In this document: one piece after another, positions 9,929 to 57,306 of the stretch
Layout of the letters: the number at the start of each line of letters is the position of its first letter
Position numbering within the stretch: the stretch's first letter is position 1
Source of the DNA: Tissierellales bacterium
GTDB lineage: Bacteria > Bacillota > Clostridia > Tissierellales > JASKZW01
DNA: 64,000 bases
Reading direction: 5' to 3'
Assembly: GCA_030152145.1 (NCBI GenBank)
Contig: JASLIL010000025.1
Span: forward strand, 34,528 to 98,527
Translations under genes and position numbers: made by a program
Notes under the pieces: model-generated
The model's database searches: none
Told to the model about the DNA's origin: nothing
What the model saw: the letters and a program-made list of their open reading frames with translations, nothing else

Positions 9929-9993
9929 GAAATTCCAGAGATAAAGTGTTAAGGAAATATCAAGCAATAGCAATTGAATATTTTCGGATGAAA

Positions 9994-10165
9994 AGAACGG
10001 GAGAGACCGATAGGCGCCGAAGGATTAAGCTATAGTGTTTGCCATATTATAGTGACAATCTCAGGTAAAAAGGACCGTTCTTAGACGAAGCTCTGAAAAG
10101 CTTTTAGCACCGAAGGAGCAATCCTTATAAAAAAGGGGAATCTCTCAGGTTTCAGGACAGAGTGG
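9994..10165 (+). promoter_or_regulatory. Tandem glycine riboswitch (two aptamers)
   Basis: Aptamer 1 has P1 GAACGG (9996-10001) paired with CCGTTC (10075-10080), plus GGGAGAG...GCGCCGAAGGA...CTCAGGTAAAAAGGAC. Aptamer 2 has P1 CTCTG (10091-10095) paired with CAGAG (10158-10162), plus CACCGAAGGAGCAA...CTCTCAGGTTTCAGGACAGAG. Both match the conserved glycine-aptamer core. Confidence 0.85.
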
Positions 10166-10200
10166 AAGGCAAGCTTATTCCCTATGTTCTGTTTTTTTTA
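10155..10200 (+). terminator. Riboswitch expression-platform terminator
   Basis: ACAGAGTG (10157-10164) pairs with TATGTTCTGT (10183-10192) with some G-U pairs, followed by T8. The left arm shares the 3' strand of aptamer-2 P1, as expected for a glycine ON switch. Confidence 0.6.
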
Positions 10201-10240
10201 TGCAAAAAATAAACTTTTTTAAGTTAAAGATAAAACATAG

Positions 10241-10269
10241 TTGAAAGAGTTATTAACTTTGTATATAAT
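10241..10269 (+). promoter_or_regulatory. Second sigma-A type promoter between the riboswitch terminator and trxB
   Basis: TTGAAA (10241-10246), 17-nt spacer, TATAAT (10264-10269). Confidence 0.45.
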
Positions 10270-10391
10270 TGGCATTGGAAGTATACTTAAACTTTAAAGA
10301 TTTTAAAGCACATATTATTTTTCATACAATGCTAATGTATACGGAATTTATATAAAGATATTAAATAACATATCTGTGAGGAGGAAATAAC

Positions 10392-11330
10392 ATGTCAGAA
10401 CTATATGATGTTATTATCATAGGAGAAGGACCTGCAGGATTAGCAGCTGGTCTATATGCATCAAGAGCTAGATTAAAAACTTTAATTATTGAAAAGGAAA
10501 AAGCTGGTGGACAAATCGTTACTACTGATGAAGTAGCTAACTACCCAGGATCAATTGAAAATGCTACAGGACCAACTTTGGTTGCTAGAATGGCAGATCA
10601 AGCTAAGGAATTTGGTGCAGAAAGAATATTAGATACAATATTAGAAGTAGACTTTTCAGATAAGGTTAAAGTTTTAAAAGGTGAAAAAGCTACTTATGAA
10701 GCAAAAACAGTTATAGTTGCAACTGGAGCTAACCCAAGAGCTATTGGGTGTCCAGGTGAAAAAGAATTAGTAGGTAGAGGAGTTTCATATTGTGCAACAT
10801 GTGACGCTGCTTTCTTCGAAGACTTAGAAGTATTCGTAGTAGGTGGAGGAGATACAGCTGTAGAAGAAGGTATGTATCTTGCTAAATTCGCTAGAAAAGT
10901 TACTATAGTTCACAGAAGAGACGAACTAAGAGCAGCTAAATCAATTCAAGAAAAAGCATTTGCTAATGAGAAAATGCACTTTATGTGGGATTCAGTAGTT
11001 ACAGAAGTTAAGGGTGACGGAATTGTTGAGTCAATGGTAGTAGAAAACACTAAAACTGGTGAAAAGACTGAAATCTTCGCAGATGAAGAAGATGGTACTT
11101 TCGGAATCTTCCCATTCATTGGATTTATACCTGCAACAAAATTATTTGATGGTATAATAGATCTAGAGGGTGGATACATTCCTACAGATGCTGATATGAA
11201 AACTAACGTTCCAGGAGTATTTGCAGCAGGAGATGTTAGGGTTAAGTCATTAAGACAGGTAGTTACAGCAACTGCTGATGGAGCTATAGCAGCAGTTCAA
11301 GCTGAAAAATATATAGAAGATAACTTCTAA
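10392..11330 (+). CDS. trxB: Thioredoxin-disulfide reductase (glycine-reductase-associated)
   Basis: FAD motif GEGPAGLAAG, redox-active CATC and NADPH motif GGGDTAVEEG. Confidence 0.9.
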   Translation: MSELYDVIIIGEGPAGLAAGLYASRARLKTLIIEKEKAGGQIVTTDEVANYPGSIENATGPTLVARMADQAKEFGAERILDTILEVDFSDKVKVLKGEKATYEAKTVIVATGANPRAIGCPGEKELVGRGVSYCATCDAAFFEDLEVFVVGGGDTAVEEGMYLAKFARKVTIVHRRDELRAAKSIQEKAFANEKMHFMWDSVVTEVKGDGIVESMVVENTKTGEKTEIFADEEDGTFGIFPFIGFIPATKLFDGIIDLEGGYIPTDADMKTNVPGVFAAGDVRVKSLRQVVTATADGAIAAVQAEKYIEDNF

Positions 11331-11412
11331 GATTTAAAATCTTAAAAGTTTCATTCAAAAAAGAAGTTTTTTTAATAAAAAAAGTTTCAAACAATAACAA
11401 GGAGGTATAATT

Positions 11413-11730
11413 ATGTTAGAACTAGATAGAAAAAATTTTGATGAAGAAGTTACAGAAGCTAGTGGAATAGTACTAGTAGATTACTGGGGACCAACTTGTG
11501 AACCATGTAAAGCTTTAATGCCACATGTACATGCATTAGCTGAAGAGCATGGAGACAAAATCAAATTCTGTTCATTTGATATTACAAAAGGTAGAAGAGT
11601 AGCTATAAAGCAAAAAGTTATGGGATTACCAGCTATCATTATCTACAAAGATGGTGAAGAAGTAGAAAGATTAGCTGAATCTGCAGCTACAGCTACAGCA
11701 GTAAAAGAATTAGTAGAAAAATATATCTAG
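11413..11730 (+). CDS. trxA: Thioredoxin with atypical CEPC active site
   Basis: 105 aa thioredoxin fold. The active site reads YWGPTCEPCK instead of WCGPC. The gene lies between trxB and grdE. Confidence 0.85.
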   Translation: MLELDRKNFDEEVTEASGIVLVDYWGPTCEPCKALMPHVHALAEEHGDKIKFCSFDITKGRRVAIKQKVMGLPAIIIYKDGEEVERLAESAATATAVKELVEKYI

Positions 11731-11758
11731 TTTTTAAGTAATTAGATTAACTTAGTTT

Positions 11759-11803
11759 TTAACTTATGGCCATGTAGGGGCTCTATATGGCCGCGTAAGT
11801 TAA
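11759..11803 (+). other. Long imperfect hairpin in the trxA-grdE spacer
   Basis: TTAACTTA (11759-11766) pairs with TAAGTTAA (11796-11803), and the inner GGCCAT (11768-11773) pairs with ATGGCC (11787-11792). That gives 14 bp in total with no clear U-tract. Confidence 0.5.
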
Positions 11804-11843
11804 TTATAGATAATAGCTTCAAATAAAAGGGGAGGTGAAGTAT

Positions 11844-13130
11844 ATGCGTCTAGATGTAGGCCACGTGCTTATAAATGATGTTCAATTTGGTAATGAAACT
11901 AAAATTGATAATGGTGTTCTATTCATAAACAAACAAGAGATTATTGATCTTGTTATGGAAGACGAACACATTAAGGAAGTAGACGTAGATATTGCAAGAC
12001 CTGGAGAGAGTGTTAGAATAACTCCAGTTAAGGACGTTGTAGAACCAAGAGTTAAGGTTGAAGGTCCAGGAGGAGTATTTCCAGGAATTTTATCAAAGGT
12101 TGATATAGTAGGTTCAGGAAAAACTAATGTTTTAAAAGGTTGTGCTGTTATGACAACTGGTAAAATAGTAGGTTTCCAAGAGGGTATTGTAGATATGAAA
12201 GGCCCAGGAGCTGACTATACTCCATTCTCAAAAACAAATAACATTGTATTGAGATGTGAACCAGTAGATGGTTTAAAACAACACGCTCACGAAAAAGCTG
12301 TTAGATTTGCAGGATTCAAAACAGCTGCTTATGTAGCAGAAGCTGCAAGAGAAATCGAACCTAATACAGTAAGAACTTATGAGGTAGATACTTTACTTGA
12401 AGGAATTAAGAAATATCCAGAACTTCCAAAAGTAGGATATGTACAAATGCTTCAAACACAAGGATTACTTCATGACACTTATGTATATGGTGTAGATGCT
12501 AAGCAAATAGTTCCAACTATAATGTACCCAACTGAAATAATGGACGGTGCTATTGTAAGTGGTAACTGTGTATCAGCTTGTGACAAGAACACAACATTCC
12601 ATCAAATGAATAACCCAGTAATCCATGATTTAATGGATGCACATGGTAAAGATTTAAACTTTGTTGGAGTAATAATTACAAACGAAAACGTATATCTTCA
12701 AGATAAAGAAAGATCATCAAACTGGACTGCTAAATTAGCAGAATATCTAGGATTAGATGCAGTTATAATATCACAAGAAGGATTTGGTAACCCAGATACT
12801 GACTTAATTATGAACTGTACTAAGATCGAAAAGAAAGATATAGATACAGTAATAATTACTGACGAGTATGCAGGTAGAGACGGTGCCAGCCAATCATTAG
12901 CTGACGCTGACATACTAGCAAACGCAGTAGTTACAGGAGGAAACGCTAACGAAGTTATCGAATTACCTCCAATGGATAAAATTATTGGTACTTTAGACTA
13001 TGTTGACATCATCGCTGGTGGATTCGATGGAAGCTTAAAAGAAGACGGCTCAATCGTAGTTGAACTTCAAGCTATCACAGGAGCTACTAACGAAGTTGGA
13101 TTCAACAAAATGTCAGCAAAAGGATTCTAA
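11844..13130 (+). CDS. grdE: Glycine reductase complex protein B proprotein (alpha/beta), GrdE
   Basis: The N-terminus MRLDVGHVLINDVQFG is typical of GrdE. GGGGAGG lies 8 nt upstream of ATG 11844; the ORF-track GTG at 11835 is too close to the RBS. An Asn-Cys self-cleavage context (VSGNCVSACD) is present. Confidence 0.9.
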   Translation: MRLDVGHVLINDVQFGNETKIDNGVLFINKQEIIDLVMEDEHIKEVDVDIARPGESVRITPVKDVVEPRVKVEGPGGVFPGILSKVDIVGSGKTNVLKGCAVMTTGKIVGFQEGIVDMKGPGADYTPFSKTNNIVLRCEPVDGLKQHAHEKAVRFAGFKTAAYVAEAAREIEPNTVRTYEVDTLLEGIKKYPELPKVGYVQMLQTQGLLHDTYVYGVDAKQIVPTIMYPTEIMDGAIVSGNCVSACDKNTTFHQMNNPVIHDLMDAHGKDLNFVGVIITNENVYLQDKERSSNWTAKLAEYLGLDAVIISQEGFGNPDTDLIMNCTKIEKKDIDTVIITDEYAGRDGASQSLADADILANAVVTGGNANEVIELPPMDKIIGTLDYVDIIAGGFDGSLKEDGSIVVELQAITGATNEVGFNKMSAKGF

Positions 13131-13201
13131 TTTAGAAACCAAATAATTGAAACAAAAAACTTATAATTTAAAATAAAAATACGAAAGGATGTGCAGAGAT
13201 A

Positions 13202-13675
13202 ATGTCATTATTTGATTCAAGCAAAAAAGTAATCATTATCGGTGACAGGGACGGTATCCCTGGACCAGCTATGGAAGAATGCATTAAGACTACAGACGCT
13301 GAAGTAGTATTCTCATCTACTGAGTGTTTTGTCTGAACTGCTGCAGGAGCAATGGACTTAGAAAACCAAAAGAGAGTAAAGGAATTAACTGAAAAACACG
13401 GTGCAGAAAACATGATCGTGTTAATCGGTGGAGCTGAAGCAGAAGCTGCAGGATTAGCAGCAGAAACTGTTACAGCTGGAGACCCAACTTTCGCAGGTCC
13501 ATTAGCAGGAGTCCAGTTAGGACTTAAAGTATACCACTGTGTAGAGCCAGAATTCAAAGAGTCAGTTGACGCTGATGTTTATGATGAACAAATCGGAATG
13601 ATGGAAATGGTTCTAGACGTTGAAGATATTGTTGAAGAAGTAAGCGAAATCAGAGAAGAATTCTGTAAATTCTAG
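13202..13675 (+). CDS. grdA: Glycine/sarcosine/betaine reductase complex selenoprotein A
   Basis: Own translation from ATG 13202 gives [56 protein letters not shown]... The in-frame TGA at 13334-13336 is codon 45, within the hallmark CFVUTAAGAMD motif. The ORF track reports only the part after the TGA (13352..13675). Confidence 0.95.
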
Positions 13676-13742
13676 TATCATATATTAGATTAGAATTTCG
13701 ATGATTAATTCCCTATGAAAAATACGGAGAGGGGGGAATCTA

Positions 13743-15056
13743 ATGGGGAAAATTAGAGTTGTCCATTATATAAACCAATTCTTCGCTGGTATCGGTGGAG
13801 AAGAAAAGGCTGACTACAAACCAGAATTAAGAGAAGGTGTAGTTGGACCAGGTATGGCTTTAGACGCTGGCTTTGGTGATGAAGCTGAAATTACTCACAC
13901 AATAATATGTGGAGACAGTTATTTTGGTGAAAACATGGAAGAAGCAGAAGCTGCTGTACTAGAAATGGTAAAAGAAGTAAATCCAGACTTATTTATAGCT
14001 GGACCAGCGTTTAACGCAGGTAGATACGGAGTTGCGTGTGGTACTATTGCAACATCTGTTCAAAATAAATTAGGCATCCCTGTAGTAACAGGAATGTACG
14101 AAGAAAACCCTGGTGCTGATATGTACAAGAAAGACGTATATATAGCATCAACAAGAAATAGTGCTGCAGGTATGAGAAAAGCTGTAAAGGTTATGGTACC
14201 ATTAGCACTTAAAATAGCTAAAGGTGAAGAAATAGGTTCACCAGCTGAAGAAGGATATTTACCAAGAGGTATTAGAAAGAACTTCTTCACAGACAAAAGA
14301 GGATCACAAAGAGCTATCGATATGCTTCTTAAGAAGATTAAAGGTGAAGAGTTCGAAACAGAATTCCCAATGCCTAACTTTGATAGAGTAGATCCTAATC
14401 CAGCAGTTAAAGATATGTCAAAAGCAACTGTTGCTATAGTAACATCAGGTGGTATTGTACCATTTGGTAACCCAGATCACATTGAGTCATCATCAGCTTC
14501 AAAATATGGTGAATACGATATTGAAGGAGTAAATGATTTACTTGAAGGCGAATGGGAAACAGCACACGGTGGTCATGACCCTGTATATGCTAACGAAGAC
14601 GCAGACAGAGTTATTCCAGTTGACGTATTAAGACAAATGGAAAAAGATGGTAGAATAGGTAAACTTCACAGATACTTCTACAGTACTGTAGGTAACGGTA
14701 CTGCAGTAGCAAGCTCAAAAGCTTATGCTGAAGAATTTGCTGCTAAGATGAAGGCTGACGGAGTAGATGCAGTTATCTTGACTTCTACTTGAGGTACTTG
14801 TACACGTTGCGGTGCAACAATGGTTAAAGAAGTTGAGCGTGCAGGAATTCCTGTAGTTCATATCTGTACAGTAGTACCTATTTCATTAACAGTAGGAGCT
14901 AACAGAATTGTTCCAGCTATAGCTATACCTCACCCACTAGGAAATCCAGCCCTAGACCATGGTGAAGAAGTAGCATTAAGACATAAAATAACTGAAACAG
15001 CTCTTCAAGCTCTAGAAACTGAAGTAGACGATCAAACAGTATTTGATGTAAAGTAG
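13743..15056 (+). CDS. grdB: Glycine reductase complex selenoprotein B
   Basis: ORFs 13743..14792 and 14820..15056 are in the same frame and are joined through TGA 14790-14792 (codon 350). The joined sequence reads ...VILTST-U-GTCTRCGATMVKEVERAGIPVVH..., the conserved UxxCxxC GrdB motif. Confidence 0.95.
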
Positions 15057-15072
15057 ATAGACTTTAAAATCC

Positions 15073-15104
15073 AAATGGGTGATAATATTTTTTATCGCCC
15101 ATTT
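15073..15104 (+). other. Hairpin in the grdB-grdC spacer
   Basis: AAATGGGTGAT (15073-15083) pairs with ATCGCCCATTT (15094-15104). That is 11 bp with one G-U pair, and no U-tract follows. Confidence 0.5.
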
Positions 15105-15148
15105 GTAATATGGAAAGGTTTAATCTACATAATTTTGGAGGTGGAATT

Positions 15149-16687
15149 ATGAATTTTCCTGTAGTAAAAGGAACTAGTTATGTATTATTACACGCTGAAG
15201 ACATGGTTATCCATAATGGTACTACCCAGTCAACAGAAAGAGTTACAAACCCAGAATCAGAGTATCTTAAAAAGTTACCAGAACATTTACGTACATTTGA
15301 GGAAGCAGTAAACTATTTACCAAACCAAGTATACATTGGTAATAAGAAGCCAGAAGACCTTAAAGAAGTTGCACAACCATGGTTTGATAAACCATTAGAA
15401 GGTGCAGATAGATTCGGTAAATTTGGTGAAATGATGCCAGAAGACGAATTCATAGGTTTAATCAAAATCGTTGACGCTTTTGACCTAGTTAAATTAACTG
15501 AAGAGTTTACAGCTGAAGTTAAAACTAAATTAGAAGCTCACCCACTAATGACAGAAGAGCTAATTGCTAAACTAAAAAAAGGAGATGCAGTTGCTGATAT
15601 CGAAAAATTAATCGAAGAGCAAGGAGCAGAAGGAATCTTCTTAGATGGCAAAACAGTTGGTTGTGTTAAAAGAGGACATGATGTTGACGTTAACTTAAAT
15701 GCACATGTTTTATTTGAAAACTTAGTATGTAAGGCATCAGGAGTTTTAGCAGGATTAAACCTAGTAGCTAAAAATGACTTTGATCCTAAAGATGTAGAAT
15801 ATGTAATCGAGTGTTCAGAGGAAGCATGTGGAGACATGAACCAAAGAGGTGGAGGTAACTTCGCAAAATCTATAGCTGAGATGGTTGGATTTGAAAATGC
15901 AACTGGTTCAGATACAAGAGGATTCTGTGCAGCTCCAACTCATGCTTTAATCGTAGCTGCTTCATTAGTACAAGCAGGAACATTCAAAAATGTTGTAGTT
16001 ATTTCAGGTGGATCAACTGCAAAATTAGGTATGAATGGTAAGAATCACGTTGAGAAAGACATGCCAATACTAGAAGACGTTGTAGGTGGATTTGCAGTAT
16101 TAATCAGTGAAAATGATGGTGTTAACCCAGTGTTAAGAACTGACATTGTTGGTAGACATACTGTTGGAACTGGTTCATCACCACAAGCAGTTATGGGTGG
16201 ATTAGTTACAAATCCTCTTGAAGAAGCAGGATTAAAAATAATTGACGTAGATAGATTCTCAGTTGAGATGCAAAACCCTGATGTTACAAAACCTGCAGGA
16301 GCAGGAGATGTACCAACAGCTAACTACAAGATGATTGGTGCATTAGGAGTTATGAAAAAACACATTGAGAGATCAGATATCAATGACTTTATACAAAACC
16401 ATGGTATGGAAGGATGGGCTCCAACTCAAGGACATATCCCATCAGGAGTACCTTATTTAGGATTCGCTAGAGAAGATATCTTAGCTGGCGATGTTAAAAG
16501 AGCTATGATTGTTGGTAAAGGTAGTTTATTCTTAGGTAGAATGACTAACTTATTCGACGGGGTATCAATAGTAGTAGAAAATAATCCAGGAAAAGTAGAT
16601 GAGGATAAGGGCGTTTCAGAAGAACAAGTAAGATCACTTGTGGCAGAAGCTATGAGAGATTTCTCTGCTCATTTACTTCAGGATTAG
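15149..16687 (+). CDS. grdC: Glycine reductase complex protein C, beta subunit
   Basis: GGAGGTGG lies 5-6 nt upstream of ATG 15149 (MNFPVVKGTSYVLLH...). The protein has a thiolase/FabH-like fold, and the gene lies between grdB and grdD. Confidence 0.9.
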   Translation: MNFPVVKGTSYVLLHAEDMVIHNGTTQSTERVTNPESEYLKKLPEHLRTFEEAVNYLPNQVYIGNKKPEDLKEVAQPWFDKPLEGADRFGKFGEMMPEDEFIGLIKIVDAFDLVKLTEEFTAEVKTKLEAHPLMTEELIAKLKKGDAVADIEKLIEEQGAEGIFLDGKTVGCVKRGHDVDVNLNAHVLFENLVCKASGVLAGLNLVAKNDFDPKDVEYVIECSEEACGDMNQRGGGNFAKSIAEMVGFENATGSDTRGFCAAPTHALIVAASLVQAGTFKNVVVISGGSTAKLGMNGKNHVEKDMPILEDVVGGFAVLISENDGVNPVLRTDIVGRHTVGTGSSPQAVMGGLVTNPLEEAGLKIIDVDRFSVEMQNPDVTKPAGAGDVPTANYKMIGALGVMKKHIERSDINDFIQNHGMEGWAPTQGHIPSGVPYLGFAREDILAGDVKRAMIVGKGSLFLGRMTNLFDGVSIVVENNPGKVDEDKGVSEEQVRSLVAEAMRDFSAHLLQD

Positions 16688-31992: not shown

Positions 31993-32044
31993 TTATATTT
32001 CAAGAAAAATGGGGTAGATATACCTTATGAAAGGAGGAAGGAAG

Positions 32045-34165
32045 ATGGGAATAAAAGAAGCCATATTAAAATTAATGGAAGAGGAAAACTATATAGCACA
32101 GGACCTGGACTCTCTTTTAAAGATCTTTGGATTTACCAGCAAGGGTGATAAAAAAGCCTTTAAAGAAGTTATAAGAGATATGGAAAAAGAGTATGCCATA
32201 GTTAAGGGACCTACAGGTAAATACGACTTGTTGGATCCATCCCAATATATAATGGGAGAACTACAGGGTCATGAAAAGGGCTTTGGTTTTTTAATACCAG
32301 ATGACAAGGAAATAAGAGATATATTTATACCTATAGACTATATGTTAGATGCCTTTAGTGGAGATAGGGTAATGGCAGAAGTCACCAAGGAAAGACAGGA
32401 TGACAGAAGTGCTGAAGGTAGGATCTTAAAGGTTCTTGAAAGAAAAAATGATACCATAGTAGGAACCTTTCAAAAAAGCAAGAATTTTGGTTTTGTAGTA
32501 CCAGATAATAAGAAGATAAACTATGATGTCTTTATACCTAAGTCAGAGATGAAGAAGGCCAAGGAAGGCCAGAAGGTAGTGGCTAAGATTGATGTTTGGC
32601 CTAGGGCTGGAAAAAATCCTGAAGGAAAGATACTGGAGGTTTTAGGTTATCCTAGTGACAAGGGAGTAGACATACTTTCAATAGTGAAGGATATGAGACT
32701 GCCTTATATCTTCCCAGAGGAAGTTAAGAGAGAGATAAAGTCTATACCTGAGGAAGTTAAGGAGGATGACTTAAGGGACAGGGAAGACCTAAGGGACTTA
32801 AAGACCTTTACCATAGATGGCATAGACGCCAAGGACTTGGATGATGCTATTTCCATAGAGCTAAATGACGCTGGAAACTACCTGTTGGGAGTTCATATAG
32901 CAGATGTTAGCCACTATGTGACAAATAAGACAGCTATTGACGATGAAGCCTATATAAGGGGTAACTCAGTTTATCTAATAGATAGGGTTATACCTATGCT
33001 ACCAAGGGAGCTGTCAAATGGTATATGTAGTTTAAATGAGGGAGTGGACAGGCTTACCCTATCAGTTTTTATGGAGATAGACAGGAATGGTAGTGTAAAG
33101 TACCACAAGATAACAGAGGGAGTTATAAGAAGCCAGAGAAGATTGGTTTATGACCATGTATCAGACTTTTTAGAAGGCAAGGGCAGCCACCCAAGTCTTA
33201 TAGATCTAGAGGAAGAAATAGAAAACCTAAGGGATCTGGCAGATATCTTAAGAGAGAAAAGAAGAAAACGTGGCAGCATAGACTTTGATATACCAGAAAC
33301 AGAAATAAAATTAGATGACACGGGCTATCCAGTCCACATAGGACCTAGGGATAGGAGGGTGGCAGATAAGATTATTGAAGAGTGTATGCTAGTTTGCAAC
33401 GAAACAGTAGCAGAGGACATGTATTGGTCTGAACTACCCTTCCTATATAGGATTCACGAAGAACCTGATATGGATAGAATAGCTACCTTTAACAAGTTTA
33501 TCCATAACTTTGGCTACAAGTTAAAGGCAACCCAGGAGGTTCATCCTAAGGAGCTGCAAAAGCTAACAGATGAGGTTAAGGGCAAGAAGGAAGAGGCTCT
33601 TATAAATACTCTTATGTTAAGATCCCTTAAAAAAGCTATCTACACTCCAGAGGATGACATGCACTTTGGACTAGCAGCCCAGTACTACACACACTTTACA
33701 GCACCTATAAGAAGATATGCAGACCTAATAGTTCACAGGATAGTAAAGGACTATGTAAAGGGCAAGCTATCAGCTAGAAAACAGGAAAGTCTAGAGGAAA
33801 GGCTGCCTAAGATAGGGGACCATGTTTCAAAGACAGAGAGAAAGGCTGAGGAAGCAGAAAGAGCTGTAGAAGACTTAAAGATGGCAGAGTATATGTTGGA
33901 TAAAATAGGCCAGGAGTATGAGGGAATAGTATCATCCCTAACTAATTTTGGAATCTTTGTTCAGCTGGAAAATACCATAGAGGGTCTTATTAGATATGAG
34001 TTTTTAAGGGATGACTACTATGTCTTTGATGAGGATAAATATATAGTATATGGTGAGAGAAGTGGCAAGGAATATAGGCTTGGAGATAGGGCAAAAATCA
34101 GAGTTGTAAATGCAGATTTAAATAAGAGAACTATAGATTTTATGTTTGTTAAAGAGGAGGAATAG
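32045..34165 (+). CDS. rnr: Ribonuclease R
   Basis: Cold-shock/OB N-terminal domains, an RNB domain ([13 protein letters not shown]) and a C-terminal S1 domain. AGGAGG lies 7 nt upstream of ATG 32045. Confidence 0.9.
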
Positions 34166-34166
34166 T

Positions 34167-34625
34167 ATGTCAGCTGGAAGAAAGATCATAGCTAGTAATA
34201 GAAAGGCTAGACATGAATTCTTTATAGAGGAAACACTGGAGGCAGGAATAGTTCTAAAGGGGACAGAGGTAAAATCCATAAGACAGGGCAGGGTTAACAT
34301 AAAGGAAGCCTATGCTGTTGTAGAGTCTGGTGAGATTTTCATATACAATATGCACATAAGTCCCTATGATCATGGAAACATTCAAAATGTGGATCCTATA
34401 AGGAAGAGAAAGCTTCTTTTAAACAAGAGAGAAATTGGGAAACTAGCAGGTTTGGTTTCCCAAAAGGGAAAGACCCTAGTACCTCTTAGCATATATTTAA
34501 AAAATGGTTTGGTTAAGGTGGAACTTTCAGTAGCCCAGGGTAAGAAGCTTCATGACAAGAGGGAAACCATAGCCAAGAAAGAAGCTGAAAGAAGGATAGA
34601 AAGAGAAGTCAGAGGCAAGTATTAA
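34167..34625 (+). CDS. smpB: SsrA-binding protein
   Basis: The sequence [22 protein letters not shown]...GTEVKS is typical of SmpB. GAGGAGG lies upstream of ATG 34167. Confidence 0.9.
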
Positions 34626-34627
34626 AC

Positions 34628-34656
34628 TTGACAAAATCCCAAAAGCTTGGTATTAT
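34628..34656 (+). promoter_or_regulatory. ssrA promoter
   Basis: TTGACA (34628-34633), 17-nt spacer, TATTAT (34651-34656) preceded by TGG (extended -10). Confidence 0.6.
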
Positions 34657-34678
34657 TAATAGCTGAAGGATTAGATTA

Positions 34679-35031
34679 GGGGACGAAACTGGCTTCGACG
34701 GGGATTTTGAAGCAGGAGTAGCGGGCCGTTGGGTCAACAACGTTAAAAGGGCAAAACTAAATTAAACGCAGAAGATAATAATTTTGCATTAGCTGCTTAA
34801 TCGCAGCTGATAGTTGCCTACAGACTGCCCACGGACTGTAATGCAACTTCAATTAAGTGGGGACCCGCGCTATGCAAAGCTTTGAGCATAGAACGGAACT
34901 TATGAAGCTACCGAAGATCAGATCCTGTTATTGGGAGCTGGTCCTAGGGAATAAAAAAACAATAACTGCGCTCGGAGAGACTCCTGTGAATAGGTTCTCG
35001 GACGTGGGTTCGACTCCCACCGTCTCCACCA
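34679..35031 (+). ncRNA. ssrA: tmRNA (SsrA), tag peptide AEDNNFALAA
   Basis: The 5' GGGGACGAAACTGGCTTCGACGGGG and the 3' GGACGTGGGTTCGACTCCCACCGTCTCCACCA form the tRNA-like domain. The tag reading frame is GCA GAA GAT AAT AAT TTT GCA TTA GCT GCT TAA at 34768-34800. Confidence 0.95.
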
Positions 35032-54127: not shown

Positions 54128-54940
54128 CTAAAGAAACTTGCTCTTAAGATTCTGCCAGTACATATCCTTATTAAAGTTTAACCTAGATATAGTTTTCTTA
54201 GGTATAGAAAACTCTACCTTGGTAATATTATCATACTTAAACTCTATTCCATCAACTATAACTATAGTTGAGTTCTCATATCTTAACTCAGGCTCAACCC
54301 TAATCTTGATTTCTCCTGGCACTATAGCACTATTACCAAGGGACCTATAGGCCTTTGAATTTATAGGAGACAGGGGAGTAATCTGAAGAGTCTTCAGGGA
54401 AGGGTAGACAACAGAGCCACCACTGGAAAGATTATAGGCTGTACTACCAACTGGGGTAGATATAATCAAGCCATCACCAGAAAAGTTTTCTAGATGATTA
54501 TTATCTATAAAAACCTTTAGGTGGACAACCTTAGACCTAATACCCTTTAAGACTATTTCATTTACACCATAAAGATTAAAGACCTTATTCTTTGTATGTA
54601 CCTTGGCATTAACAAGGAAGATTTCCTCTACAGTATATTTTTTCTTCAAGTAATTATCAATAAACTCATCTATATTCTCAGGCAAGATCTCCTGGAAAAA
54701 TCCTAAATGTCCTGTATTAATACCAATAAATGGTATATTGGTAAATCTATATCTGTGGACAGCCCTTAAAAAAGCTCCGTCCCCACCAACACAAATATTC
54801 AATTCCGCATTATTATCATACTTCTCAGGCAGGTAGAAGCCCTTTGCTTCAAATTTCTCCCTAAGTAATCCTGATGTATTTTGAGAAGGTTTATTATAGT
54901 TGGAAATAATATTTATGGTTCTCTTATTAGAGTTCAACAT
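54128..54940 (-). CDS. nadK: NAD kinase
   Basis: 270 aa with the GGDGAFL motif and the NGHLGF-like context INTGHLGF. Confidence 0.9.
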   Translation of the reverse strand: MLNSNKRTINIISNYNKPSQNTSGLLREKFEAKGFYLPEKYDNNAELNICVGGDGAFLRAVHRYRFTNIPFIGINTGHLGFFQEILPENIDEFIDNYLKKKYTVEEIFLVNAKVHTKNKVFNLYGVNEIVLKGIRSKVVHLKVFIDNNHLENFSGDGLIISTPVGSTAYNLSSGGSVVYPSLKTLQITPLSPINSKAYRSLGNSAIVPGEIKIRVEPELRYENSTIVIVDGIEFKYDNITKVEFSIPKKTISRLNFNKDMYWQNLKSKFL

Positions 54941-55037
54941 AACCCCTCCTAAGGTAAATTAATATACTATATATTATAACATTAAAAGTTAAATCTTTGT
55001 ATCTGTATTGACAATTAGCTTGAACTTTGTAAAAAAC

Positions 55038-55066
55038 TTGATGAAACTAGAAAAAAAGGGTATAAT
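55038..55066 (+). promoter_or_regulatory. Sigma-A type promoter of an orphan noncoding unit
   Basis: TTGATG (55038-55043), 17-nt spacer, TATAAT (55061-55066). Confidence 0.5.
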
Positions 55067-55072
55067 ATAAAT

Positions 55073-55278
55073 ACAATCTACGGTGTACGTTATCTCAAAT
55101 AATTCAACCGACACTTTTAATATACGGGAGTTCGATGTCTGTACTTTAAGAACATGCCTTAACTGGACGTTCAAGATTTATGGCGGAGCACCCACCTCTA
55201 CATGAGGGTTTGAATTAGATGGGAGACGGCATTGTGGATCATACATACTAGAAGAATCCATTAATTTGGATTTTTTTT
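55073..55278 (+). ncRNA. Candidate structured sRNA of about 205 nt with 6S (SsrS)-like rod-plus-bubble architecture
   Basis: No credible ORF is present. The unit is delimited by the promoter above and by an AATCCA/TGGATT hairpin followed by T8 (55255-55278). Hand-folded long-range helices are 55076-55086/55229-55239, 55100-55109/55207-55217, 55131-55141/55164-55174 and 55146-55150/55158-55162. They surround a large internal loop. Family assignment has not been verified. Confidence 0.45.
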
Positions 55279-55308
55279 AAGCCCTATTTCCAGGAGGAAA
55301 TAGGGCTT
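55279..55308. terminator. Strong GC hairpin abutting the stop of the minus-strand ABC operon
   Basis: AAGCCCTATTTCC-AGGA-GGAAATAGGGCTT, a perfect 13-bp stem. The T-run lies on the plus-strand 5' side only, so it is a non-canonical terminator for the minus strand. Confidence 0.55.
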
Positions 55309-55311
55309 AAT

Positions 55312-57306
55312 TTATCTTTTGAAATCTTCCTTATACTGTAGCTTATATAGGTTGTAGTAGATTCCCTGTTTTTGAAGAAGCTCTTGGTGGTTGCCAGCCT
55401 CCTCTATACGGCCCTTGTTTAAGACCATTATCTTGTCGGCACTCTGTATAGTAGAAAGCCTGTGGGCAACAGCTATACTGGTTCTCCCCTTGGTAAGCTT
55501 TCCTAGGGCATCCTGTATAAGAATCTCTGTCTCCGTATCTATGCTGGAAGTAGCCTCATCCAGTATCAATATACTAGGATCGAAGGCCAGGGTTCTAGCA
55601 AAGCTTAGAAGTTGCTTTTCACCACTGGAAAGGGTAGCACCTCTCTCCATAACTTCCTCATCATACTTCTTGGGAAGTCTATCTATAAAGTGATGGGCAT
55701 TTACATACTTGGCTATAGTTTCTATCTCCTCATCGCTAATATCCTGGTTATTAAGTCTTATATTATCCTTGATGCTACCAGAGAACATAAAGACATCCTG
55801 AAGGACAACACCTATATTTTTCCTAAGGGAATACTTATCATAGTCCTTTATATTTACACCATCAATAAGGATCTCACCCTCTTGTATATCATAGAACCTA
55901 GTTATAAGGTTCATAATAGAGGATTTACCAGCCCCAGTAGCTCCAACAAAGGCCACCATCTCACCAGGTTCTATAGTAAAGTTCAAGTCCTTTAAAACCC
56001 AGTTCTCATCATCATAGGAAAACCAAACATTCTTAAACTCTATCTTCCCCTTAAAGGATTGGGCCACAATAGGATCCTCCCTATTCTCTATAAACTCATC
56101 ATGATCCAAGATAGTAAAGATTTTTTCACTAGAGGCCATGGCAGACTGAAGAATATTATACTTTTCAGTTAGGTCCAGTATAGGCTCAAAAAATCTCTGT
56201 AAATAGTCTATAAAGGCAAAGAGTATACCAAAGGGAATAATCCCCCTTAAAACATCCCTACCACCTATAAAGAAAAGTGCAGCCATACCTGAAAACTTTA
56301 TAATCTCTATTATAGGTCTAAAAACTGCATAGGTCTCCACCTCATCCATAGAGGTCTGAAGATACTCCCTGTTAATCTCATCAAATTCCCTAGAAATCTT
56401 ATCCTCCTTCTTAAAGACCTGTATAACCCCCATACCACTAATATTCTCATTTAAAGTAGTATTAATCTTGGCCAGCTGGGTCCTTGACAGCCTGTAAACA
56501 TTCCTTATTTTCTTCCTGAAAAGTATGGAAGTCAAGATTATAAAGGGCAGGAAGACAAGAGACACCAAGGTCAACTTTAGATTTAATCTAAACATTATTA
56601 TAATAACCCCAATAAGAATAAAAACATCCTTAAAAAGATTAATAAGAACACCAGTATACATTTCATTTAGGGACTCTGTATCATTGGTAACCCTAGTAAC
56701 CAGCTTTCCAATAGGGTTTTTGTCAAAGTATGATATGGAAAGATGCTGAATATGAGAGAAAATATCCTTCCTTATACTATAGATTATCTTTTGGCCAGTG
56801 TAGTTTAGGATAAACATCTGTATATAGTTAAATACAAAGACCAAGAAAACCGTTAGGAGGAAGATAAAACTTATTCTCTTTATTCCATCTATATCATACT
56901 GCCTAAAATTCCTGTAGTCCTCCTGACTAAGGTTTTCAGCCAGAGCCTTGTTATCTGGATCTAAAAGAAGGTAGCTTCCATCTTTTTTCTCCAAAACCTT
57001 CTTATTAAAGGAAGCATCTATGTCCACGCCCTCCTTTAAGAGATCCTTCTCCCTAATATAAAGCTTTCCCTTATAGGAAGTAGACCTTATGTCAGGGTAA
57101 GCACCAGCTTCAAATTCATACATAAGAGCCTTATCACCACTTATATAGTCATCTATACTGACCTTAATCAGATAGGGCCTAAGTAGTTCTAGACCAGTTA
57201 CCACAGTCATTAGGACTATAGTTAGAAGAAGGTATTTCCAGTAGGGCCTAGCATAGCCTAGCAATCTTTTCATTAGTTTTATATCAAAACTCTTTTTATC
57301 TTCCAT
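55312..57306 (-). CDS. ABC exporter permease/ATPase subunit, BmrD/YheH-like, with extracellular insertion
   Basis: 664 aa with Walker A GATGAGKSS, Walker B ILILDEATSSID and a deviant signature LSSGEKQ. About 90 extra residues lie between TM1 and TM2. Confidence 0.85.
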   Translation of the reverse strand: MEDKKSFDIKLMKRLLGYARPYWKYLLLTIVLMTVVTGLELLRPYLIKVSIDDYISGDKALMYEFEAGAYPDIRSTSYKGKLYIREKDLLKEGVDIDASFNKKVLEKKDGSYLLLDPDNKALAENLSQEDYRNFRQYDIDGIKRISFIFLLTVFLVFVFNYIQMFILNYTGQKIIYSIRKDIFSHIQHLSISYFDKNPIGKLVTRVTNDTESLNEMYTGVLINLFKDVFILIGVIIIMFRLNLKLTLVSLVFLPFIILTSILFRKKIRNVYRLSRTQLAKINTTLNENISGMGVIQVFKKEDKISREFDEINREYLQTSMDEVETYAVFRPIIEIIKFSGMAALFFIGGRDVLRGIIPFGILFAFIDYLQRFFEPILDLTEKYNILQSAMASSEKIFTILDHDEFIENREDPIVAQSFKGKIEFKNVWFSYDDENWVLKDLNFTIEPGEMVAFVGATGAGKSSIMNLITRFYDIQEGEILIDGVNIKDYDKYSLRKNIGVVLQDVFMFSGSIKDNIRLNNQDISDEEIETIAKYVNAHHFIDRLPKKYDEEVMERGATLSSGEKQLLSFARTLAFDPSILILDEATSSIDTETEILIQDALGKLTKGRTSIAVAHRLSTIQSADKIMVLNKGRIEEAGNHQELLQKQGIYYNLYKLQYKEDFKR

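Follow-up and report, generated by a model that had tools for sequence, protein, structure and literature searches.

The 371-bp intergenic gap at positions 54941-55311 of the window (the whole stretch of 64,000 nucleotides analysed here) is flanked by two minus-strand genes, nadK and the last gene of a two-gene ABC exporter operon, and both the gene calls and the Pfam matches agree with the initial annotation on its limits and neighbours. Just past the stop codon of the exporter gene lies a hairpin, after which the minus strand continues with A8 and has no U-tract. The gene-level features of the locus are as follows.

54128-54940, minus strand: NAD kinase gene (nadK), Pfam NAD_kinase and NAD_kinase_C
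54941-55311: intergenic gap, 371 bp
54989-55174, minus strand: antisense ORF of 61 aa, no Pfam match
55083-55205, plus strand: sense ORF of 40 aa, no Pfam match
55312-57306, minus strand: ABC exporter gene, Pfam ABC_membrane and ABC_tran

The initial annotation had described the gap as lacking any credible ORF, the 61-aa antisense ORF being the only one, and had proposed in it a promoter-to-terminator unit for a 6S-like RNA of about 205 nt. The first statement holds in its main part, as neither ORF is conserved or matches Pfam, but the antisense ORF is not the only one, since the 40-aa sense ORF is also present. No conserved ORF was found inside the RNA in 12 homologues (see below), where the strand, position and length of the ORFs vary and one homologue (L070) has no ORF of at least 25 aa; both small ORFs were rejected as genes.

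The signals that would define a transcript from this gap all lie on the plus strand.

55038-55043, plus strand: -35 hexamer TTGATG (promoter scan)
55061-55066, plus strand: -10 hexamer TATAAT (promoter scan), invariant in 13 of 13 copies
55251-55278, plus strand: first intrinsic terminator, an AU-rich hairpin with the core AAUCCA/UGGAUU (from 55255) followed by U8
55277-55320, plus strand: second hairpin (55277-55310) with a T-rich tail, 15 pairs, -23.4 kcal/mol (terminator scan, ViennaRNA)

The promoter scan agrees with the initial annotation in placing TTGATG-N17-TATAAT at 55038-55066, where it matches 10 of the 12 consensus positions. Promoter-like hexamers are common in this AT-rich spacer (4 found, 2.8 expected); an upstream TTGnnn-N17-TATAAT is present in all 13 genome copies, that is, in the window and the 12 homologues. 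From the usual spacing, transcription is predicted to start near 55073. Both hairpins that had been noted downstream are there, and both are longer than first described: ViennaRNA lengthens the stem of the AATCCA/TGGATT hairpin with T8 (noted at 55255-55278) to 55251-55260/55267-55276 (-9.9 kcal/mol, U-tract at 55271-55278), and the second hairpin, first described as a perfect 13-bp one, has 15 pairs. The AU-rich first terminator contains too few G-C pairs to be called by the terminator scan. A hairpin with a U-tract, built from different stem sequences, occurs at the same place in nine of the 12 genome homologues, while in the three copies that lack it convergent genes end within a few bases of the RNA. 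The second hairpin looks better suited to the plus-strand RNA than to the adjoining exporter operon and is predicted to serve the former as a backup terminator. Taken together, these sequence signals (promoter in 13 of 13 copies, terminator in 10 of 13) point to an independent small transcript of about 160-210 nt, and in the window the predicted primary transcript extends from about 55073 to 55271-55278 (approximately 206 nt).

The scan of the whole window with Rfam 15 at gathering thresholds identified a match to the 6S/SsrS family (RF00013) at 55072-55244 on the plus strand, with 72.1 bits (E = 2.8e-12) against a gathering score of 46.4 bits. The match covers model positions 1-187 of 187 and is not truncated; the 6S core comprises 173 nt and starts 6 nt past the -10 hexamer, where a transcript from this promoter is expected to begin. 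The proposed 6S-like RNA thus coincides in strand and place with a full-length family member. The initial annotation had considered another large Firmicutes RNA, for instance the raiA motif, or an undescribed one to be equally possible, but with permissive filters and E <= 1 only 6S was found in 54900-55400 and no other Rfam family. A permissive scan of the 64 kb (E <= 0.1) revealed no second 6S copy.

Scored with the same model, E. coli ssrS (NC_000913.3, 3055983-3056165) reaches 139.8 bits, and the 72 bits of the window RNA are well below this value, as expected for a distant lineage. Around the bubble, the sequence blocks diagnostic of 6S RNA, namely CCGA (5' side), the GGG/CCC pairs, and CACCCACCU and GGGU..GAA (3' side), each fall on their E. 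coli counterparts position for position. Across the 13 genome copies the segments CCGAC, GGG/CCC, ACCCACCU and GGGU.UGAAUUA are invariant or nearly so and occupy the same model columns as in E. coli. We consider it highly probable that the gap holds ssrS, the gene for 6S RNA, of a Tissierellia-type Firmicute. It is an ordinary, canonical 6S gene, a feature of a known kind that is called by standard Rfam-based annotation and is unsurprising in a Firmicute.

Other RNA elements lie elsewhere in the window. In the region 9984-16687 (plus strand), a tandem glycine riboswitch (9988-10162) is located ahead of a glycine reductase operon, which contains genes for a thioredoxin reductase-like protein (10392-11330), thioredoxin (11413-11730), the Gly_reductase component B subunits (11835-13130) and GrdB (13743-15107); the grdB frame includes an in-frame TGA at 14790-14792 with a SECIS_4 element directly after it (14793-14830). 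A plus-strand trans-translation cluster (32027-35031) comprises RNase R (32027-34165), SmpB (34146-34625) and tmRNA (34679-35031, 191.9 bits); a weaker match to a permuted-tmRNA family (34645-34800) overlaps the tmRNA and most likely represents the same gene.

Homologues of the RNA were sought near nadK. A protein search with nadK gave 80 loci from Tissierellia and related genomes (among them Tissierella, Gudongella, Soehngenia and Schnuerera), in which a sequence profile detected 12 full-length homologues of the RNA and five more truncated by the end of the locus; without exception they are encoded on the other strand than nadK. Two of the 12 independently pass the Rfam 6S threshold (68.3 and 67.8 bits). 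The reference-genome and metagenome collections yielded no near-identical sequence; the closest nadK protein (Tissierella) reaches 74% identity and the closest 6S about 75%. A pattern scan of metagenome contigs added 72 loci, mostly from bioreactor and digester samples, with 46 distinct full-length sequences, bringing the relatives to 58. These contigs were picked by an exact pattern in the bubble-flanking segments, so that the invariance of those segments among them is partly by construction; the covariation evidence comes from the closing stem and the terminal arm, which lie outside the pattern.

Two alignments were made with MAFFT, which takes no account of structure, one of 13 sequences (the window and the 12 genome homologues; mean column identity 72%) and one of 59 sequences (the window and all 58 relatives). 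From the smaller alignment RNAalifold recovered a closed rod with compensatory changes in 28 of 50 pairs; 94.9% of the cells were paired, versus 39-46% when the 3' partners were slid by 1-3 columns, and none of 500 column shuffles reached the observed value on any measure. The larger one yielded the same structure, with 27 of 48 pairs compensatory and 95.7% of cells paired versus 37-45% in the slid versions, and here, too, the observed values were reached by 0 of 500 shuffles. The long-range helices covary strongly, and conservation extends to the body of the RNA itself rather than being restricted to the nadK promoter and the exporter terminator. Folding is specific to the strand as well: the plus-strand fold has -49.3 kcal/mol (z = -3.53; 0 of 200 shuffles as good), whereas its reverse complement gives z = -0.59. 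The closed rod with a central bubble postulated in the initial annotation is thereby recovered, with the following elements.

55076-55096/55221-55239, plus strand: closing stem, RNAalifold helix 1 of the 13-sequence alignment, 19 pairs, 9 compensatory, 93.5% paired
55100-55109/55206-55217, plus strand: P2 (downstream) helix beside the bubble, helices 2 and 3, 100% and 94.9% paired and almost invariant in the 13 sequences
55110-55125, plus strand: 5' side of the bubble, about 16 nt, unpaired in the Rfam consensus, the minimum-energy fold and RNAalifold
55126-55193, plus strand: terminal arm, helices 4-7 in both alignments (55126-55133/55186-55193, 55139-55146/55176-55183, 55150-55153/55169-55172 and 55157-55158/55165-55166)
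55159-55164, plus strand: apical loop at the tip of the terminal arm
55194-55205, plus strand: 3' side of the bubble, about 12 nt
55195-55198/55204-55207, plus strand: small hairpin in the 3' side of the bubble (minimum-energy fold)

The P2 helix consists of 55100-55106 paired with 55211-55217 (UAAUUCA/UGAAUUA) and of C55108 and C55109 paired with G55207 and G55206 (CC/GG), its 5' strand being aligned to model positions 34-42. In the terminal arm compensatory changes were observed in 8 of 8 pairs of helix 5 and in 4 of 4 pairs of helix 6. The small bubble hairpin is predicted in 13 of 13 copies, whether the RNA is free or its template is blocked, and in the 59-sequence consensus; its outer pairs are invariant, so that it carries no covariation signal.

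Three outer long-range helices had been drawn by eye, and these are borne out, with covariation support for 55076-55096/55221-55239 and 55100-55106/55211-55217. The inner part of that drawing has to be replaced. Its arm (55131-55141/55164-55174 and 55146-55150/55158-55162) is only 61.8% paired in the 13 sequences, a value reached by 447 of 500 shuffles, and its bubble (55110-55130 opposite 55175-55206) is oversized and results from a wrong register. As the conserved inner arm lies at 55126-55193, the bubble is reduced to about 16 nt (55110-55125) opposite about 12 nt (55194-55205).

The gene order around the RNA differs between the window and most of its relatives. In most relatives carrying 6S near nadK, a pseudouridine synthase gene (rluD-like, PF00849) lies upstream of 6S on the same strand and divergent from nadK, and in many of them (the loci compared include L048, L036 and L055) a convergent gene for a PHP-domain protein (PF02811) separates 6S from the ABC exporter. 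No homologue of either protein was found in the whole 64 kb of the window, so that 6S lies directly between nadK and the exporter; nadK is also directly upstream of 6S in two relatives, L063 and L077. This suggests that a local deletion or rearrangement removed the flanking genes and spared 6S with its own promoter. The window and its homologues have in common the upstream, divergent nadK and the downstream, convergent ABC exporter, which supports orthology. Strict synteny of nadK and 6S was rejected, as 6S lies within 3 kb at only 17 of the 80 nadK loci (12 full-length, five truncated by the end of the locus).

To locate the template start, E. coli ssrS and the window were aligned to the same RF00013 model. 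The known product-RNA start in E. coli 6S, U44, corresponds in this alignment to model position 45 and to C55112 of the window, and a C occupies template position +1 in the window as well as in 12/13 homologues. The product RNA predicted from the sequence would be G-initiated, 5'-GUCGGUUGAAUUAU.

The window RNA has in common with E. coli ssrS, and with RF00013 in general, the full-length match, the closing stem, the central bubble, the terminal arm and the conserved bubble-flanking blocks, as well as the organization as a stand-alone gene of about 170-200 nt with its own promoter and terminator. It differs from E. coli 6S in being AT-rich, in its lower score (72 vs 140 bits), in the template +1 base (C instead of U) and in its gene neighbours, nadK and the ABC exporter in place of the order zapA-ssrS-fau. 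Moreover, while a 9-bp hairpin appears in the 3' side of the E. coli bubble only after product-RNA synthesis (PMC8876501), the short bubble hairpin of the window RNA is predicted already in the free RNA.

In the latter respect the window RNA resembles 6S-1 (bsrA) of B. subtilis, whose free RNA, unlike that of E. coli 6S, already carries a hairpin on the 3' side of its bubble (PMC8876501). The sigma-A polymerase of B. subtilis needs a GTP start for efficient synthesis of product RNA, and the product RNAs of 6S-1 and 6S-2 start with GTP and ATP, respectively (PMC3753640). Judged by these published features, the window RNA is like 6S-1 in its Firmicute host, its predicted G start and its 3'-side bubble hairpin; both also have an AU-rich product RNA of about 14 nt, by prediction in the case of the window. 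The C at template +1, and with it the predicted GTP-initiated product RNA, is read from the alignment, and the pre-formed hairpin comes from the predicted folds. When the 14-nt template is blocked, the minimum-energy folds of the 13 copies do not contain the central bubble collapse helix of 6S-1; by eye, a weak pairing of UUUAAU with AUUAGA can be sketched. With 6S-2 (bsrB) the window RNA has the family and the overall rod in common, but 6S-2 has an A-initiated product RNA and a less structured bubble (PMC3753640, PMC8876501), in contrast to the C template (G start) and the structured 3' side of the bubble predicted here. The predicted G start and the bubble hairpin place the window RNA nearer to 6S-1 than to 6S-2 or E. 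coli 6S, and by these predictions it looks like a 6S RNA of the 6S-1 type.

6S RNA is widespread in bacteria. According to published accounts (PMC8876501, PMC3299989), it holds back RNA polymerase by binding the housekeeping holoenzyme in the manner of an open promoter, and it is freed when the enzyme copies a short product RNA. We infer the functional steps for the window RNA, namely polymerase binding and product-RNA synthesis, from its membership in the family. The sigma-A housekeeping promoter at 55038-55066 would drive the plus-strand transcript, with the hairpin at 55277-55310 as a backstop for termination. In the stationary phase the rod with its bubble would imitate an open promoter and fill the active site of the sigma-A holoenzyme, and this occupation would damp housekeeping transcription. 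During outgrowth, as NTP levels rise, the polymerase would be able to transcribe the bubble's 5' side together with the neighbouring helix. It would begin opposite C55112, so that the short product RNA may be expected to start with 5'-GUCGGUUGAAUU, complementary to 55099-55112; the 5' strand of P2 (55100-55109) is predicted to be unwound and copied into it. The hybrid between product RNA and 6S would then refold the RNA and free the polymerase.

Several other explanations of the locus were weighed against a 6S gene. The RNA might be structured and 6S-like in shape and yet have another function, either as some other polymerase-binding RNA or as an undescribed Firmicutes sRNA. The 72-bit score, moderate when set against that of E. 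coli, leaves some room for this, and further polymerase-binding RNAs are known, such as Ms1 of actinobacteria, a structured RNA of similar size (PMC11077062). However, Ms1 belongs to a different family, only 6S matched the gap in Rfam, the match is full-length and above the curated threshold, and the bubble-side blocks follow those of E. coli position by position; we regard another function as very unlikely. Slightly less likely still is a decayed or inactive 6S copy, left as a relic when a rearrangement eliminated the flanking pseudouridine synthase and PHP genes. The window does lack both neighbours found in the relatives, but its copy retains an intact promoter and terminator, every helix and the invariant blocks beside the bubble, the 64 kb contains no second 6S at E <= 0.1, and in L063 and L077, too, nadK is directly upstream of 6S.

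Two further readings have almost no weight left. Both the 61-aa antisense and the 40-aa sense ORF exist and could in principle represent a small protein gene; neither is matched by Pfam or conserved in the 12 homologues, and substitutions on one side of a helix are matched on the other, as expected for an RNA but not for codons. The fold could also have arisen by chance in a spacer that holds just the nadK promoter and the exporter terminator, given the AT-richness of the spacer and the frequency of promoter-like hexamers in it. The z-score of -3.5 on one strand only argues against this, and the RNA body is conserved with compensatory changes even at loci where further genes lie between it and both nadK and the exporter; a chance fold is refuted by the RF00013 match together with the covariation in 13 and 59 sequences. 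Within the 6S family, the RNAs of the Tissierellia clade have an invariant 14-nt segment in common, UAAUUCAACCGACA, and a predicted product RNA that is unusually AU-rich. It is conceivable, though improbable, that they form a distinct subtype in which the release of polymerase differs in detail from that of E. coli 6S and 6S-1, represented here also without the usual flanking pseudouridine synthase and PHP genes.

We know of no experimental work on 6S RNA in Tissierellia. The seemingly empty gap of 371 bp between nadK and the ABC exporter is explained by a standard gene for a housekeeping regulatory RNA, and the value of the finding lies mainly in annotation. It opens no new question and adds to the 6S family one sequence and 58 distinct relatives with good covariation, all from the Tissierellia.
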